A stretch of 56,426 nucleotides of DNA from a virus (lineage: Duplodnaviria > Caudoviricetes), in the IMG/VR virus record IMGVR_UViG_3300020408_000007, positions 1 to 56,426 of that record; one strand, given 5' to 3'. Position 1 is the stretch's first letter; every line of letters begins with the position of its first letter. The notes beneath the pieces were generated by a model. That model was not told where the DNA came from, did no database searches, and saw nothing but the letters and a program-made list of their open reading frames with translations. This document shows positions 8,706-15,731 of the stretch, one piece after another. The translations under genes were made by a program, and so were the position numbers.

Positions 8706-9373
8706 TAGTTCACCCTTAAATATTGATAGTTAGGTGAAATATTGAAAGATGATCGGTCGCGATCTTCTGCCCTAGCCCTTTCAAATTCTTCATCGTAAAT
8801 TGCTTTTAAAAGCTGTATTCTATCGGGTGCACGTTTAATCGAAACGTAATAAGCAAGACCCGCCGCCAAACAAGGATAAAATCTAAACGGTAAGTCAAGC
8901 GTATTGTCTAATTGACTTGCGTCGTCCATACGAACAAGAGCGTCATAAATAATAGTGTCAGTGGCATTTTCAGGAGCATTGTATAAAAAAATCTTAGGCG
9001 TCACTTGTCTGTCTAAGAAAAATTGACTTGGCCTGCCCTGTTGAGTCTTATCGGGCAATACAAGATAATCTTGCCTGCTAATCCTATTTAATACCGTATC
9101 TGACCCGCTTCTACGACAAACTGAAGATAAAACATCTATGACATCCGCATCTAAATCGTAGGACGCAGTGCCTTGAGTGAGCGTCAAAGACCGTTGTTTT
9201 ATGGTCCATTGGTTCAAACCACGATTTGCCCAATCTGCTAGAAGCAGATTGAGCGATCGTTTTGCGGTGCGAGCATCGTATCCCGTCTTAAATTCGAGCC
9301 CGCATCGCTCAAAAGCCTCTTCGATATAATCATCGACTTGAAGCTCAAAGTTTTTTGAACCGGACGTTGTCAT
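8705..9373 (-). CDS. Head-tail connector / tail tubular A-like protein
   Basis: IEEAFERCG...ARRSLNL-like, WANRGLNQW, GRPSQFF, PFRFYPCLAAGLAYY. Confidence 0.55.
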   Translation of the reverse strand: MTTSGSKNFELQVDDYIEEAFERCGLEFKTGYDARTAKRSLNLLLADWANRGLNQWTIKQRSLTLTQGTASYDLDADVIDVLSSVCRRSGSDTVLNRISRQDYLVLPDKTQQGRPSQFFLDRQVTPKIFLYNAPENATDTIIYDALVRMDDASQLDNTLDLPFRFYPCLAAGLAYYVSIKRAPDRIQLLKAIYDEEFERARAEDRDRSSFNISPNYQYLRVN

Positions 9374-9525
9374 TACTTCTTAACTCTACCGCCCATCCGC
9401 ATTCTTTTTTTAGCCGCGCCGCCACCTCTCATGAAAGCAGGTTTTTTCTTTGCTTTTGCGGCTCCGCCGCGCATCATTTTTTTAGCGGCTCCGCCCTTCA
9501 TCATTTTCTTTGCTTTTTTCACCAT
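9373..9525 (-). CDS. 50-aa Lys/Arg-rich basic protein with repeated xxGG motifs (not in ORF track)
   Basis: Manual translation MVKKAKKMMKGGAAKKMMRGGAAKAKKKPAFMRGGGAAKKRMRMGGRVKK*; AGGAG upstream; TAA overlaps the next ATG. Confidence 0.65.
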   Translation of the reverse strand: MVKKAKKMMKGGAAKKMMRGGAAKAKKKPAFMRGGGAAKKRMRMGGRVKK

Positions 9526-10072
9526 TCTTTAGTCTCCTATAAAAATTTTGACGTTGCTGGTATAAAAAATCTGCATTATAATATTGTTGAGCAATTTTAT
9601 AATACCCCTTTACTCTAAGGGCATCAGAGGCTTCCTGCAACTTAGAAAGTCTCTGTAGAAACACCATACCATACGGTGTATCAACAGTCGATTCAAACTC
9701 ATTGTCCAAAAGTTCATTGCCATCATCTTCCGGATGAAATCCCATTAGAAACATGTCTTTATTAATAAACACGCCTTCAGATATAGCGTGATTTAAGCCG
9801 TCTAAATACTTGTCCATTACGTCAACAGGAAGTGGGTCAAAATCTATTAATATGACTACGTCTCTACTATCGTCCCAAGTAGAAATCAGAGTATATAAGG
9901 GTTGCCAATGACTATCGTACTTAAAAGAAAAACCTACTCTGTTTTTTGCCCAGGCTGTTTTTGCATAAGGACAAGCAGGTAAATTGTTATAATATTCGTT
10001 TGGCACTTCGAGCGCATGAGCAGACCAATCTCTCATTTCAGATTTTATAGCTTCTTCAGTCGCAAAATCCAT
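9482..10072 (-). CDS. Hypothetical protein, DUF1415-like
   Basis: CPYAK..W and GFHP motifs, LQRLSKL..AS..L...GYY. Confidence 0.45.
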   Translation of the reverse strand: MDFATEEAIKSEMRDWSAHALEVPNEYYNNLPACPYAKTAWAKNRVGFSFKYDSHWQPLYTLISTWDDSRDVVILIDFDPLPVDVMDKYLDGLNHAISEGVFINKDMFLMGFHPEDDGNELLDNEFESTVDTPYGMVFLQRLSKLQEASDALRVKGYYKIAQQYYNADFLYQQRQNFYRRLKNGEKSKENDEGRSR

Positions 10073-10079
10073 TAGATCC

Positions 10080-10448
10080 TCAAAATTGCACTACAGACCC
10101 GCGTGTTCTTTTTCTTCTGCCATTCATGACTGCGCCGCATCCCCTAGCAACAGCCGTGCCAGCCACTTTTTTACCCCGGAAAGGCCGTTTAACGGGGCCT
10201 CCATTTGCAAGTTTTGTGACTTTTGCTTGTTTTGTATTAGATACCACTGTCTGGCCCTTTGCTCCCGCTCTCTTCTTCTTTCGTGCTGTAGATGCTCTTT
10301 CAGTTTTTGAGAGGCTTCTAGCTTTTGAAGCTGGTAAGCAGCGGTCTGGGTTTTTCTTGTCTTTAGATGTACCGCATTTGCCCTTAATGCTTCCATCAGT
10401 TCCAATCCGAACCCAATTTTGATTTACCCATTTCTTTAACTCACCCAT
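10080..10448 (-). CDS. Small basic conserved phage protein
   Basis: LKKWVNQNWVRIG...CG...CLP; very K/R-rich. Confidence 0.6.
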   Translation of the reverse strand: MGELKKWVNQNWVRIGTDGSIKGKCGTSKDKKNPDRCLPASKARSLSKTERASTARKKKRAGAKGQTVVSNTKQAKVTKLANGGPVKRPFRGKKVAGTAVARGCGAVMNGRRKRTRGSVVQF

Positions 10449-10449
10449 T

Positions 10450-10578
10450 TTAGGCTCTTTTTTTCTTACCTAACACTCGTTTTAAAGTTTTTGCTTGCTT
10501 TGCATGTAATTTTGAAGCTTTATTCAAACCTTTAACTACTTTACGAACTTTTTTCTTATTTGACTTTGTAAGCGTCAT
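10450..10578 (-). CDS. 42-aa basic protein (not in ORF track)
   Basis: MTLTKSNKKKVRKVVKGLNKASKLHAKQAKTLKRVLGKKKRA*; ATGA overlap with the upstream stop; fills the gap. Confidence 0.6.
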   Translation of the reverse strand: MTLTKSNKKKVRKVVKGLNKASKLHAKQAKTLKRVLGKKKRA

Positions 10579-10862
10579 TTACCTTTTCTCTTTCCACCCT
10601 TAGATTTTTTAGCATAATTGGGGTCTTTACAATATTTTGAGGCGGCAAGATTTGCATATGCACTAGGATATGTATCAAAGGTACGTTTTGCCCAAGCTTT
10701 ACCTTCCGGGCAGATCTTACTTCCTTTTGATTTTTTTGAAGCCGCACCTCCTTTTCGGAAGTAACTTAAACCTTTTGGCGTAGGATTGCCTTTCATTTTT
10801 TTACGACCTTTCATCGGGGGCTTGGATATTTGATTTGCGATTTGTCCACGCGATATCGTCAT
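10575..10862 (-). CDS. Small basic conserved phage protein
   Basis: MTISRGQI...CPEGKAWAKRTFDTYPSAYAN. Confidence 0.6.
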   Translation of the reverse strand: MTISRGQIANQISKPPMKGRKKMKGNPTPKGLSYFRKGGAASKKSKGSKICPEGKAWAKRTFDTYPSAYANLAASKYCKDPNYAKKSKGGKRKGK

Positions 10863-11037
10863 TTACCCTCTCCTGCAGATAAAAATCCCATAATTCAGCT
10901 AAAAGCTTATGATTTTGATCAACTTTTACTGAAATAACTGCGGTTTCTGTCTTCAATTCAACAACAGAAAAAGCAATCCAACCTATAAAAGCCAAACTTG
11001 CTCCACTTATCAATGTGCTTATGTTCAACATTTCCAT
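10801..11037 (-). CDS. Small membrane protein
   Basis: N-terminal hydrophobic helix followed by a coiled coil. Confidence 0.45.
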   Translation of the reverse strand: MEMLNISTLISGASLAFIGWIAFSVVELKTETAVISVKVDQNHKLLAELWDFYLQERVNDDIAWTNRKSNIQAPDERS

Positions 11038-11309
11038 CTCCGACGAGCCTGACGTAAACGACTGTTTGGATTTTTTGCAGCTTTGGGAAATTTTTTCATT
11101 TGTCCTGCACTGCGAGCACAGAAGGATTTGCGACGTTTTGCGTCTTTTGAACCCTTTTTTACTTTTCCTGTGACAGCAGTTTTTAATTTGGATCCAGGGT
11201 TAGCTCTTCTGTACGCGGCAACACCTGCCTTTGTCATCCCCGCCCCAGCTTTTGTGGGGCGGAAATTCTTTTTGTTTCGCTTCGGCATTTTATCATTACG
11301 CGAAGCCAT
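11025..11309 (-). CDS. Small basic conserved phage protein
   Basis: GMTKAGVAAYRRANPGSKLKTAVT...RRKSFCARS...RRRWKC. Confidence 0.65.
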   Translation of the reverse strand: MASRNDKMPKRNKKNFRPTKAGAGMTKAGVAAYRRANPGSKLKTAVTGKVKKGSKDAKRRKSFCARSAGQMKKFPKAAKNPNSRLRQARRRWKC

Positions 11310-11316
11310 AACTCAC

Positions 11317-11589
11317 CTAATTAAAAAAGAAGGTCACTGCTGTGATATTGGTTAGAGTGCCGACAAAAATGTCACTTACACGAATACCTTCAGCAGGGAT
11401 ATTTACAGAGTGTGTGTCAGAAGCATTAAAGTCTAAATCTAAGACTGTAGCACCGCCTGAACCATCTGTAAGAGTGAGTCTTGGAGTTCCAGATGCAGTT
11501 TTTAACTGTATCTGTCGAATACGAGCAGGGCCAACACCTAGTGACCCGGTTCCAGTAATCCGTTTCGTTTTAACATCAGAGCCTGCCAT
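11317..11589 (-). CDS. Putative minor virion protein
   Basis: Beta-rich 90-aa protein downstream of the capsid genes (IPAEGI, VTFFF). Confidence 0.5.
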   Translation of the reverse strand: MAGSDVKTKRITGTGSLGVGPARIRQIQLKTASGTPRLTLTDGSGGATVLDLDFNASDTHSVNIPAEGIRVSDIFVGTLTNITAVTFFFN

Positions 11590-11592
11590 AGC

Positions 11593-11676
11593 TTACTCTC
11601 CGTTCTTTTTTGTAGCCTTTTTGACGGCTTTTATAACCCTCTTTACAGACTTTTTGCCACCGTTGAGCTTACCCAT
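11593..11676 (-). CDS. 27-aa basic peptide (not in ORF track)
   Basis: MGKLNGGKKSVKRVIKAVKKATKKNGE*; AGGGG upstream; fills the intergenic gap. Confidence 0.45.
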   Translation of the reverse strand: MGKLNGGKKSVKRVIKAVKKATKKNGE

Positions 11677-11686
11677 GATAAACCCC

Positions 11687-12166
11687 TTATGAAACAGCGG
11701 CAGAGAATGGAGTAGCTTCAGAGCCCGTTGCTGCGCCACGAGACACAACAGAAAATACATTTGTCGCTACATCTTGTATTTCAACAACGCCCCCAAGAAT
11801 ACCTCCTGTGGTCGTGCCATTCAAAGTAATGGTGTCACTATCTGCGGCAGTTTCAAAAATAGACGCTGTATCCCCGCCATCATTAGCCACAATCGCTACA
11901 CCAGCCATAGTGTCATTGGCGTTTGCAACCTGAACTATGTAGTTGTTTGATGTAATGGTAGTAGCCACAAAGAACTTGTAGATATTACCCGTACCGCTGG
12001 CAGCAGGAAGAGTAAGTGTCGCCCCACTCGCTACGCTTAACACCATTGTACGTCCCGCATGTGAAGCTGCGGTTAACGTGGCATCCGCAGTTATAGATAC
12101 GAGAGAATTTGATCCTGAAATAAAACCGCCAGTAGAAATCACTGGACCTGAAAAAGTAGTAGACAT
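11687..12166 (-). CDS. Putative capsid decoration / head fibre protein
   Basis: MSTTFSGPVIS..GF, TLPAA, ends ATPFSAAVS; immediately downstream of the MCP gene. Confidence 0.5.
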   Translation of the reverse strand: MSTTFSGPVISTGGFISGSNSLVSITADATLTAASHAGRTMVLSVASGATLTLPAASGTGNIYKFFVATTITSNNYIVQVANANDTMAGVAIVANDGGDTASIFETAADSDTITLNGTTTGGILGGVVEIQDVATNVFSVVSRGAATGSEATPFSAAVS

Positions 12167-12171
12167 ATTGA

Positions 12172-12256
12172 CACCCTTTGCACAAGGTTTCGCTTTGCAG
12201 TCCGTGCAATGTCAGGTGGGCATGATCCTGTCTACAAAGCTGAAGTTAAGCCCAAA
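12172..12256 (-). ncRNA. Candidate structured 5' leader RNA (nested stems plus two pseudoknots)
   Basis: 9-bp stem 12240-12232/12200-12192 with a G.U pair valid only on the minus strand; CAGG/CCUG stem; UGGGC/GCCCA and UUGCAC/GUGCAA cross-pairings next to the SD. Confidence 0.5.
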
Positions 12257-12269
12257 ATCAATATATAAT

Positions 12270-12300
12270 AAAAAAGAGCGACTGTGAAGCCGCTCTTTCT
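12270..12300 (-). terminator. Intrinsic terminator after MCP
   Basis: AAAGAGCG...CGCTCTTT hairpin with a U-tract on the minus strand. Confidence 0.7.
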
Positions 12301-12318
12301 GTTTTTAAAAAAACTGTT

Positions 12319-13224
12319 TTACGCTCCAGGTGTTGCAAAAACACAACGCCAATCAGAGACACCAAAGCTGTACCGCTCACGAGCTTTAAAACGTGTGTTT
12401 CCTGTGTCAAAATCGCCCTCAAGAGCAGTTTTGATAGGTGAACGATTAAACATTTTAAAGCCGTTTGGTGCATCTGTTTTGATGAAGAAGGCGTCTGTAT
12501 CTGTTAGGAAGTGATTAACCACTGCCCCTTCAGGTAACATTCCCATGTTCTTCATTGCATTTGCATCATTGTCTGCTGTGCCAGAACGTAGATTTGAGTT
12601 GATAACTCGCTCTGCAATAAACTGAAGTTCTTTTGGAATTATCAGTTTTGTGCCGCGTACAGCAACTTTCAAACCACGCTCATCAGTGAACCCTGCAATA
12701 TCAATCAACATTTGCTCAAGAGAGGTCTCATTGAGATCTGCTGCAGTTGACAACAAGTTACGCTGATTGCCCGACAAAGAGGGATGCGCTGCGGAACACA
12801 GTGCTGCACCGTCACCAACAGGGCTTCCTGTGCTGAACGCATTGTTCAAAATAGAAGCTGCTTTGATTTGCTTGGTTTGCGCCATAGAGCGAGCCAAAGC
12901 TTTGGTGTAACGAGACGCCAGACGATCATACAGATTATCTTCAATAGCTTCCTCAGTAATAGAGAATGCAAGAGCGATAGTCTCATGTGTATACCGTGCG
13001 GTATATGTCTCTTGTGCATCATCAAATGTGATGGCAGAGCCTTCACCTTTGACAGGTGCTGTAGAAAATCCACCAAGCATTACCTCTTCTTCGAATGCTC
13101 TATCAGAGGTCTCTTCTTCAAAAATCTCTGTGTGTTCATTTTCGTAGCGGTTATATTCCAGACCGAACAGTGCGTTCAAACCTGGCTCTAGCTCTTTAGC
13201 TAGTTGTGCGCGAGATATAGCCAT
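12319..13224 (-). CDS. Major capsid protein
   Basis: MAISRAQLAKELEPGLNALFG...ARYTHETIALAFSITEEAIEDNLY...KARERYSFGVSDWR; size, position and following terminator fit an MCP. Confidence 0.9.
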   Translation of the reverse strand: MAISRAQLAKELEPGLNALFGLEYNRYENEHTEIFEEETSDRAFEEEVMLGGFSTAPVKGEGSAITFDDAQETYTARYTHETIALAFSITEEAIEDNLYDRLASRYTKALARSMAQTKQIKAASILNNAFSTGSPVGDGAALCSAAHPSLSGNQRNLLSTAADLNETSLEQMLIDIAGFTDERGLKVAVRGTKLIIPKELQFIAERVINSNLRSGTADNDANAMKNMGMLPEGAVVNHFLTDTDAFFIKTDAPNGFKMFNRSPIKTALEGDFDTGNTRFKARERYSFGVSDWRCVFATPGA

Positions 13225-15296: not shown

Positions 15297-15731
15297 TCAA
15301 CCGTGTAAAATGTCTTCAGGGTCAGATATCTTAGCAAGGATTTCATCATCGTTAAGTATCCGAACCTCACCACCTTCAATCTTAAAGCGAGAACCCGCAT
15401 ATCTTGCAAAAATAACCCAATCTCCTTTGTTGCACCAAGTGCCCAAAGGAAATTTGTCTTTATCTTCGTAAGCAAGAGGACCTACTTTAAGGACGTAACC
15501 CACTTGAGTGGATATTTCTTGATTTGCCAGTATCTGATCTGGAAGCAAAATGCCCCCTTCAGTTTTACCTTTACCCTTGTAAGGGAGAACCAATATACGC
15601 CAGCCTGTAGGCTCTGGCATTCTGTCCAATAGCGATTTATCAATTTTTGAAGGGTCGAGTACACGTTCTGAGGGATGTACCCAGGGAGAAGACGAGGCGT
15701 CTTCATTTGTAGTTTTGACTGCATCAGTCAT
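15297..15731 (-). CDS. groES: Co-chaperonin GroES-like protein
   Basis: PTGWRILV...KTEGGILLP...VLKVGP...GDWVIFARYAGS...ILNDDEILA. Confidence 0.9.
   Translation of the reverse strand: MTDAVKTTNEDASSSPWVHPSERVLDPSKIDKSLLDRMPEPTGWRILVLPYKGKGKTEGGILLPDQILANQEISTQVGYVLKVGPLAYEDKDKFPLGTWCNKGDWVIFARYAGSRFKIEGGEVRILNDDEILAKISDPEDILHG

Follow-up and report, generated by a model that had tools for sequence, protein, structure and literature searches.

Organization of the locus

The window, by which we mean the whole stretch of DNA that was analyzed (56,426 bp), is a virus record that is 93% complete; its phage relatives are the Pelagibacter phages HTVC023P and HTVC027P, the Roseobacter phages CRP-901 and CRP-902, and DSL-LC04. 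The element under study lies on the minus strand, where it begins 65 nt past the stop codon of a Mu gpT-like head gene located directly upstream. The product of this gene matches Pfam Phage_capsid_4 (56.2 bits) and Mu-like_gpT (PF10124; 28.4 bits, cut-off 20.1), and its PHROG call is major head protein. A GroES-like co-chaperonin gene (15297–15731, minus strand; phrog_3188, E = 4.3e-18) heads the capsid gene block, as it does in HTVC023P and DSL-LC04. The initial annotation had placed the element just after the capsid-gene terminator (12300–12271) and just before the ribosome-binding site (RBS) of the next gene, and this placement holds; read-out of the minus strand located every pairing named there, as well as the Shine–Dalgarno (SD)-like AGGGUG, at the position assigned to it. 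The helices are designated K, S1, S2, and S3 from here on, and the features of the locus are as follows.

12319–13224, minus strand: major capsid protein gene, Mu gpT-like, upstream neighbor (Pfam and PHROG)
12271–12300, minus strand: intrinsic-terminator-like hairpin and U-run after the capsid gene (consensus scan; 13 pairs, T-run)
12283–12288, minus strand: −35-like TTCACA inside the terminator loop (consensus match only)
12260–12265, minus strand: −10-like TATATT, 5 nt upstream of the first paired base (promoter-like scan)
12254–12250, minus strand: UGGGC, 5′ strand of S1 (the first pseudoknot of the initial annotation)
12240–12232, minus strand: GCUUUGUAG, 5′ strand of K (previously P1), followed by A; two-sided changes in relatives
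12230–12227, minus strand: CAGG, 5′ strand of S2 (previously P2), followed by AUCAU
12221–12217, minus strand: GCCCA, 3′ strand of S1, within the S2 loop
12216–12213, minus strand: CCUG, 3′ strand of S2, followed by ACA, of which AC is conserved
12209–12204, minus strand: UUGCAC, 5′ strand of S3 (previously the second pseudoknot), followed by GGA
12200–12192, minus strand: CUGCAAAGC, 3′ strand of K, within the S3 loop, followed by GAAA
12187–12184, minus strand: CCUU, possible anti-SD strand of an alternative hairpin
12183–12178, minus strand: GUGCAA, 3′ strand of S3
12177–12172, minus strand: AGGGUG, SD-like
12166–12164, minus strand: AUG start codon of the downstream 159-aa ORF
11687–12166, minus strand: 159-aa ORF downstream of the leader; its N-terminal ..TTFSGP.. 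arm is conserved, and the product is a putative capsid accessory (cement) protein

Helix K (GCUUUGUAG/CUGCAAAGC) comprises 9 bp including one G.U pair, and a 9-nt linker separates its 5′ strand from UGGGC; the last helix, S3, ends directly at the SD. Nearest-neighbor energies, calculated for the window sequence with each helix on its own, are −9.8 kcal/mol for K, −6.6 kcal/mol for S1, −5.3 kcal/mol for S3 (UUGCAC/GUGCAA), and −3.2 kcal/mol for S2, as well as −3.2 kcal/mol for the SD hairpin CCUU/AGGG. A mini-frame (AUG CCC ACC UGA; 12212–12223, minus strand) occurs in the S2 loop and 3′ strand; it is probably meaningless, because the AUG is absent from many relatives.

Single-sequence thermodynamics do not distinguish the region from shuffled sequences (n = 200): the minimum free energy (MFE) has a z of −0.88, and 37 of the 200 shuffles fold equally well or better. 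Both K and S2 are present in the MFE structure of the region. The MFE structure of a 115-nt stretch was rejected as the fold of the element, being an unrelated structure that extends into the coding region. The motifs AGACAGG (8 vs. 5.7 expected) and CCTGACA (7 vs. 5.9 expected) are not enriched across the window. A further terminator-like hairpin with a U-run lies at 12145–12129 (minus strand), in codons 8–13 of the downstream ORF. At this position relatives average −10.1 kcal/mol vs. −7.9 kcal/mol for codon-order shuffles; the folds differ among related sequences, and the hairpin was rejected as a conserved element.

The initial annotation had found no family to name for the element, in agreement with an Infernal-type Rfam scan of the window that gave no match. 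Across the whole window there is no Rfam family at the gathering score and no tRNA, and a permissive search of 11500–13000 with Rfam 15 returned only far-sub-threshold matches, centered on or spanning the terminator.

Covariation among leaders of the window type

A pattern scan of viral contigs recovered at least 119 stretches of the window type (type A). The matches listed gave 129 elements with full flanks, of which 98 are distinct by their 120-nt core; once cut to the stretch between the −10-like box and the start codon, 97 distinct sequences among these matches were aligned. The scan pattern fixed AGACAGG, CCTGAC, and TTGCAC; thus, the invariance of S2 and UUGCAC within the type A set is no evidence for either helix.

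Helix K, proposed as P1 in the initial annotation, is real. Among the 97 relatives from the matches listed it is paired in 94.3% of cells; six of its nine pairs show two-sided changes, two never vary, and one departs by mismatches only. The fifth pair is U-U in one large group (30 sequences among the matches listed). For the structure as a whole, the covariation score is 0.180 vs. 0.086 in shuffled alignments (0/500 as high), and sliding the 3′ partners by 1–3 columns lowers pairing from 92% to 28–46% (both for the 97 sequences among the matches listed). G.U pairs are tolerated, from which it follows that the constraint acts on the minus-strand RNA. Loop lengths change by non-multiples of three in the type A relatives among the matches listed.

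The pairing of the 5′ tail with the S2 loop (S1; UGGGC/GCCCA in the window) is misaligned by MAFFT, so that it appears only 71% paired in the alignment. By per-sequence search, a helix of 4–8 bp is found in 97/97 sequences among the matches listed, formed by many different partner pairs. Cognate duplexes have a mean energy of −9.60 kcal/mol, compared with −8.27 kcal/mol (sd 0.15) for permuted partners (0/500; 97 sequences among the matches listed), and the cognate duplex beats the mean non-cognate energy in 82/97 of these listed sequences. The first of the two pseudoknots is thereby borne out. For S3, the GUGCA of the 3′ strand is invariant in 97/97 sequences among the matches listed, though it was unfixed by the pattern, and the last base of GUGCAA pairs in 94/97 of them.

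The initial annotation had also put forward an alternative hairpin covering the SD. Its potential to form stands, with CCUU/RRGG paired in 99.7% of cells (97 sequences among the matches listed); its covariation is confined to a two-sided change in two sequences. Purine-rich SD variants fill the AGGGUG column across the 97 relatives among the matches listed.

A covariance model (R1) was built from type A, with the window sequence included. In the 56-kb record, R1 finds one copy (103.3 bits, with the window in the model), and the next best match has E = 3.7. With default filters, R1 finds exactly the 15 type A loci among 82 capsid-anchored loci. The type A leader has no blastn match in 50,697 GenBank phage records, and type A is thus without a known cultured phage carrier.

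A sister form in HTVC023P, HTVC027P, and their relatives

A further 80 loci were anchored on the HTVC023P capsid protein (72–93% identity), and many of them carry a second form of leader (type C), which is also present in HTVC027P. A parser resolved 25 type C leaders; because it accepted only sequences in which AG and AC follow K and [AG]AC precedes its 3′ strand, the junction bases given here are partly imposed. From 5′ to 3′, the order is the 5′ strand of a helix x, a linker, the K 5′ strand ending in AG, AC, a strand of 2–3 nt, the x 3′ strand, the complement of the 2–3-nt strand (mini-helix), AC, the 5′ strand of a helix y, RGA, the K 3′ strand, a linker, the y 3′ strand, and the SD. Helix x corresponds to UGGGC/GCCCA of the window, K to P1, the mini-helix to CAGG/CCUG, and y to UUGCAC/GUGCAA.

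All four helices covary in type C. Complementary versions number 11 for x, 7 for y, and 22 for K. Helix K is 100% paired, with two-sided changes at six of eight pairs (MAFFT alignment, 26 sequences), and the middle pair of the mini-helix is UA in 20, GC in four, AU in one, and CG in one of 26 sequences. The energy of x is −7.36 kcal/mol vs. −4.15 kcal/mol for permuted partners (0/500), and that of y is −6.67 vs. −3.97 kcal/mol (0/500). The two types differ in that the type C mini-helix has 2–3 bp (mostly CUG/CAG), compared with CAGG/CCUG and a 10-nt loop in the window, and in that the second hairpin is variable in sequence, compared with the invariant UUGCAC/GUGCAA of the window type. Nor was a CCUU anti-SD stretch like that of the window type seen by eye in type C.

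Run with its filters off, R1 detects type C leaders at E < 0.01 in 16/31 loci (best match 28.0 bits, E = 1.3e-6); 10 more matches lie at the expected position with E values of 0.012–8.5, and in four loci there is nothing there. Three alignments of R1 to type C were examined, and these are co-linear from the −10 box through the AUG. Based on the co-linear order and this cross-detection, types A and C are regarded as one family, which we define as a family of kissing-hairpin leaders with four co-linear helices and AGAC / (C)NG-AC / RGAC junctions that terminate at the SD of a ..F.GP gene; the window fits this definition. An Rfam scan of three type C loci gave no match to RF03012, and type C is not in Rfam. 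Two claims of the initial annotation gain support through this homology: P2 (CAGG/CCUG), which is backed by the covarying mini-helix of type C and not by the type A set, and the second pseudoknot (UUGCAC/GUGCAA), which is backed by the covarying helix y. The covariation in homologs that the initial annotation had called for is therefore present, as compensatory changes in both type A and type C.

The fold is best read, from these patterns of covariation, as two hairpins joined by a 9-bp loop–loop helix and a mini-helix. S1 would pair 12254–12250 with 12221–12217, and S3 would pair 12209–12204 with 12183–12178; their loops would be joined by K (12240–12232/12200–12192), and the 4-bp S2 (CAGG/CCUG) would clamp the junction. 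The term "double pseudoknot", under which the element was first described, is better replaced by two hairpins joined by a long loop–loop helix plus a clamp.

Promoter-like and terminator-like sites and transcript evidence

The intrinsic-terminator-like hairpin after the capsid gene has counterparts in sibling loci, where a hairpin and T-run of varied sequence occupy the terminator position (by eye). A promoter-like scan identified TTCACA-17-TATATT (12288–12260), with 10/12 matches to the consensus; the TTCACA of the terminator loop thus has a second reading as a −35-like hexamer, at a spacing of 17 nt from the −10-like box. The TTCACA terminator loop recurs in many sibling loci (by eye).

A TAnnnT box ends 2–9 nt before the first paired base in 95/98 type A leaders among the matches listed, compared with 17.7 (sd 3.8, maximum 30) in mononucleotide shuffles of the upstream part; when the search interval is moved away by 8, 16, or 24 nt in the upstream direction, the counts are 31, 9, and 3, respectively. 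A TGn precedes the box in 42 type A sequences (of 98 among the matches listed), and the box is also present in 21/25 type C leaders. The position of the −10-like box fits a candidate promoter of the sigma-70 type that would start the transcript at the first base of the fold.

A metatranscriptome contig of 394 nt (depth 5.6), identical to the window, spans 11920–12313, and partial, low-depth coverage of the region comes from three others (X14, X19, and X20); such contigs carry no start, end, or strand information, and RNA is indistinguishable in them from carried-over DNA. Because the 394-nt contig crosses both the terminator and the proposed start, read-through or DNA carry-over fits it as well as a new start does.

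The gene downstream of the leader

It is the downstream gene, rather than the capsid gene, that the leader accompanies. Of the distinct type A leaders among the matches listed, 100/101 are followed by an ORF whose N-terminus carries the ..F.GP motif, and the same N-terminus is found after a type B leader (see below) in CRP-902 and after a type C leader in HTVC027P. There, the capsid gene is set apart from the leader by two small ORFs, yet leader and ..F.GP gene stay together.

The downstream protein, which is mostly hypervariable, has 3111 homologs, and there is no functional name among the 120 matches listed. It has no PHROG family, no Pfam, and no named protein-atlas cluster (unnamed viral clusters only), and an AlphaFold2 model is all-beta with low confidence (pLDDT 53.9). 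Spore photoproduct lyase was rejected as a homolog, since sequence and profile searches gave only chance-level matches in the PDB. The initial annotation had called the product a decoration protein; Pfam, the PDB, and the Atlas supply no such name, and the label "cement protein" is found only in the record of a relative, DSL-LC04. According to passages of PMC10611076, the DSL-LC04 annotations derive from a database and HHpred pipeline.

Several other small ORFs were observed in these gene blocks. In many HTVC023P-like loci, a small ORF (M.K.F.V.I.AYGY...) directly after the capsid terminator replaces the leader (L229, L233, L236, L239, L242, and others of L202–L281; L283 at 1867–2139). Downstream of the gene that follows the leader, the window encodes small ORFs of very high Lys/Arg content within 9373–11760 on the minus strand (9373–9525, 10080–10448, 10450–10578, 10575–10862, 11025–11309, and 11593–11760), which might encode internal virion or nucleic-acid-binding proteins.

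Alternative leaders in the same slot and Mu-gpT-DE

The stretch after the capsid gene was typed by sequence patterns in 83 loci, consisting of 80 viral contigs with capsid proteins 90–96% identical to that of the window, two isolates, and the window itself. Across these capsid-anchored loci, the leader is type B in 59 (assigned by pattern, with four confirmed by the Rfam model), type A in 16, and type C in seven; one locus (L011) has none, and it has a different downstream gene. Type B is Mu-gpT-DE (RF03012), which matched all four type B loci among nine loci scanned (50.7–70.4 bits, gathering score 49). That Mu-gpT-DE occupies this slot in most sibling phages was missed by the initial annotation.

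The leader type is independent of the flanking genes. Loci L001 (type A) and L002 (type B) have capsid proteins that are both ~96% identical to that of the window; L029 has a type C leader before a protein 82% identical to the downstream protein of the window; and the type A loci L008, L052, L054, and L057 encode downstream proteins without a tblastn match to that of the window.

In the Mu-gpT-DE consensus, an outer 4-bp helix (CCUG...CAGG) surrounds a single hairpin plus a joining strand of 13 nt, and the 3′ strand of this helix leads on into AGGAG and AUG. Mu-gpT-DE shares its genomic location with the window type: the terminator of a Mu gpT-like capsid gene precedes it, a ..TTFSGP.. gene follows directly, and a −10-like box lies upstream (by eye). 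In both, GA and AC flank a CCUG/CAGG helix, there are three GAC triplets, and the 3′ end runs into the SD. By eye, the joining strand is also alike (CUGAC-A(C)-U(U/A)GC(C)-AC-G(G)AC). However, Mu-gpT-DE is ~45 nt with two helices, compared with ~85 nt and four helices in the window. The CAGG strand of Mu-gpT-DE lies 3′ of CCUG and belongs to the SD, whereas that of the window is the 5′ strand of a local hairpin. The window thus departs from the outer-helix layout of Mu-gpT-DE: CAGG precedes CCUG, with a 10-nt loop between them, and a separate AGGGUG follows 36 nt on. A circular permutation of Mu-gpT-DE was rejected as an explanation of the window type, because the C-rich and joining strands would sit on the wrong sides. 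A loop-to-joining-strand pseudoknot in Mu-gpT-DE was likewise rejected, since ~14/52 distinct sequences lack the needed loop GG (by eye).

RF03012 gave no match in two type A loci scanned, nothing at E ≤ 10 in 11500–13000, and nothing at the gathering score in the whole window. Conversely, R1 with filters off gave nothing better than E = 0.8 in 19 type B loci. Given that strand order and size are unlike, and that neither model detects the other, homology between types A/C and type B is only a suggestion; the A/C and B leaders are at least functional substitutes at one locus.

Two further observations concern the short leaders. In some Mu-gpT-DE leaders (L048, L051, L018, and L002), the joining strand repeats the start of the hairpin 5′ strand and could pair with the hairpin 3′ strand; L005, L006, L024, and L076 do not fit this arrangement (by eye). 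A fourth short leader type (L241, L270, L277, and L278) precedes the same gene family as the other leaders; it is made up of a hairpin with a UUCG cap between UGAC and GAC, after which come an A-rich stretch and AGGAG.

The orphan motif Mu-gpT-DE is reportedly among the 224 motifs of Weinberg et al. 2017, and it is absent from the main text of that work. One work that names Mu-gpT-DE was found in the literature, and the family is merely listed there.

Proposed function and alternative explanations

The comparisons above establish the four helices and the family, as well as the constant position of the latter and its association with the downstream gene family. As to function, the element most likely acts in cis on the translation or stability of the downstream mRNA. 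We propose, with a probability of roughly 0.55, that it is a cis-acting leader that shields the 5′ end, fixes the presentation of the RBS, and so sets the output of a virion gene. In this proposal, the element would make up the entire 5′ leader of the mRNA that encodes the downstream ORF, and a transcript from the conserved −10-like box would start at about the first paired base. The fold would bury the 5′ end of the mRNA, and may thereby protect it against decay initiated at that end, and the RBS would be presented at the mouth of a rigid core. Together, 5′ shielding and RBS presentation would determine how much of the accessory protein is made, and would do so independently of the capsid gene, which lies on the other side of a terminator. 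The SD abuts the last helix in the window type and overlaps it by ≤ 3 nt in some type C and Mu-gpT-DE forms; since this relation differs between forms, there is no single on/off logic. The near-invariant unpaired bases (GAC triplets, GUGCA) exceed what a simple stabilizer would need, which hints at a partner molecule or catalysis.

A partner molecule is what an effector-responsive operator would entail, with a small molecule or protein binding the fold and changing access to the RBS; candidates for such feedback are the unassembled product of the downstream gene and the capsid protein. This is the main rival to our proposal, yet we hold it to be rather unlikely. It would account for junction bases that are near-invariant while the helices vary (AGAC before S2, CCUG-AC after it, and RGAC before the K 3′ strand), for three scaffolds in one slot that each have three GAC triplets (by eye; partly fixed by the patterns), and for an SD that abuts or overlaps the last helix. 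In type A, moreover, GUGCAA either pairs with UUGCAC or forms the loop of the SD-covering CCUU/RRGG hairpin, and there is a precedent in T4 gp32, which autocontrols its translation via a 5′ pseudoknot (passages of PMC10690425). Against an operator, no Rfam riboswitch model matches (11500–13000 at E ≤ 10; whole window at the gathering score), and the gene context points to no ligand or protein. Because the downstream protein is mostly hypervariable, RNA binding as a common property could reside only in its short N-terminal arm. The switch suggested in the initial annotation also fares poorly: the alternative SD hairpin is weak (−3.2 kcal/mol vs. −5.3 kcal/mol for UUGCAC/GUGCAA), and by eye it has no CCUU counterpart in type C. 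A further reading, in which types A and C and Mu-gpT-DE are interchangeable scaffolds of one device (three GAC triplets and a GA-CNG/CNG-AC mini-helix), serving as a sensor or as a nuclease-resistant 5′ cap, is speculative and somewhat doubtful; as a sensor, the device might respond to an effector such as an unassembled capsid accessory protein or a metabolite.

Another alternative, in line with the "ribozyme-like" label of the initial annotation, is a self-cleaving ribozyme acting on read-through transcripts, with its cut falling between the capsid gene and its successor. The compact pseudoknotted core with highly conserved junction bases and the phage context resemble those of such RNAs, several architectures share one slot, as is known for ribozyme classes, and the RNA-library contig of 394 nt crosses the terminator, so that read-through RNA may exist. 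HDV-like and other double-pseudoknot ribozymes are similarly small, have nested or crossing helices, and occur in phages. In the HDV fold, however, the strand corresponding to GCCCA follows the hairpin, whereas here GCCCA is inside the CAGG/CCUG loop, so that the strand order differs from the HDV topology. No hammerhead, twister, twister-sister, pistol, hatchet, or HDV-like model matches (11500–13000, E ≤ 10), and cutting off an upstream part would be unnecessary, given that the −10-like box places the start at the first paired base. Nothing beyond the general look favors a ribozyme, and we regard one as highly improbable. A stand-alone trans-acting sRNA, or an RNA role unrelated to the downstream gene, is hardly more credible: the element is short and highly structured, and Rfam types Mu-gpT-DE as "Gene; sRNA", but there is no terminator between the element and the start codon, the conserved block continues into the SD and AUG, and the element travels with the ..F.GP gene. 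Finally, promoter-like and terminator-like sites flank the element and mechanically called ORFs overlap it, so that the conservation could in principle reflect DNA signals or a small overlapping ORF, with no RNA structure. This can practically be dismissed, as it is contradicted by the two-sided compensatory changes in several helices and by the permutation tests, as well as by G.U tolerance on one strand only and by loop length changes that are not multiples of three. Overall, the initial interpretation is partly supported, and a cis-acting leader with a shielded 5′ end is the reading that we favor.

Relation to known systems and significance

The T4 gene 32 operator is like the leader in that it is a pseudoknot at the 5′ end of a phage mRNA, located upstream of the RBS of an abundantly made protein (passages of PMC10690425). 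Its fold and sequence are unrelated to those of the leader, for which a partner protein is not indicated, and no membership is claimed. In the papers examined on Mu-gpT-DE, HTVC023P, DSL-LC04, and pelagiphages, no description of the leader was found, and the pelagiphage literature, where checked, makes no mention of a promoter, a terminator, or "decoration". According to passages of PMC10690425, a 2023 catalog comprises 8,495 anonymous RNA candidates from IMG/VR intergenic regions, and it may well contain the leader.

The leader family is large, real, and conserved, and it is absent from Rfam. It occurs in a very abundant group of ocean phages, and as a structured RNA it could be very common in surface ocean waters. 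For the study of its function there are cultured test systems, namely HTVC023P and HTVC027P for type C and CRP-902 for Mu-gpT-DE. The orphan Mu-gpT-DE gains two larger relatives or substitutes, and it gains a context, as the leader of a specific family of virion genes rather than the tail of the capsid gene.
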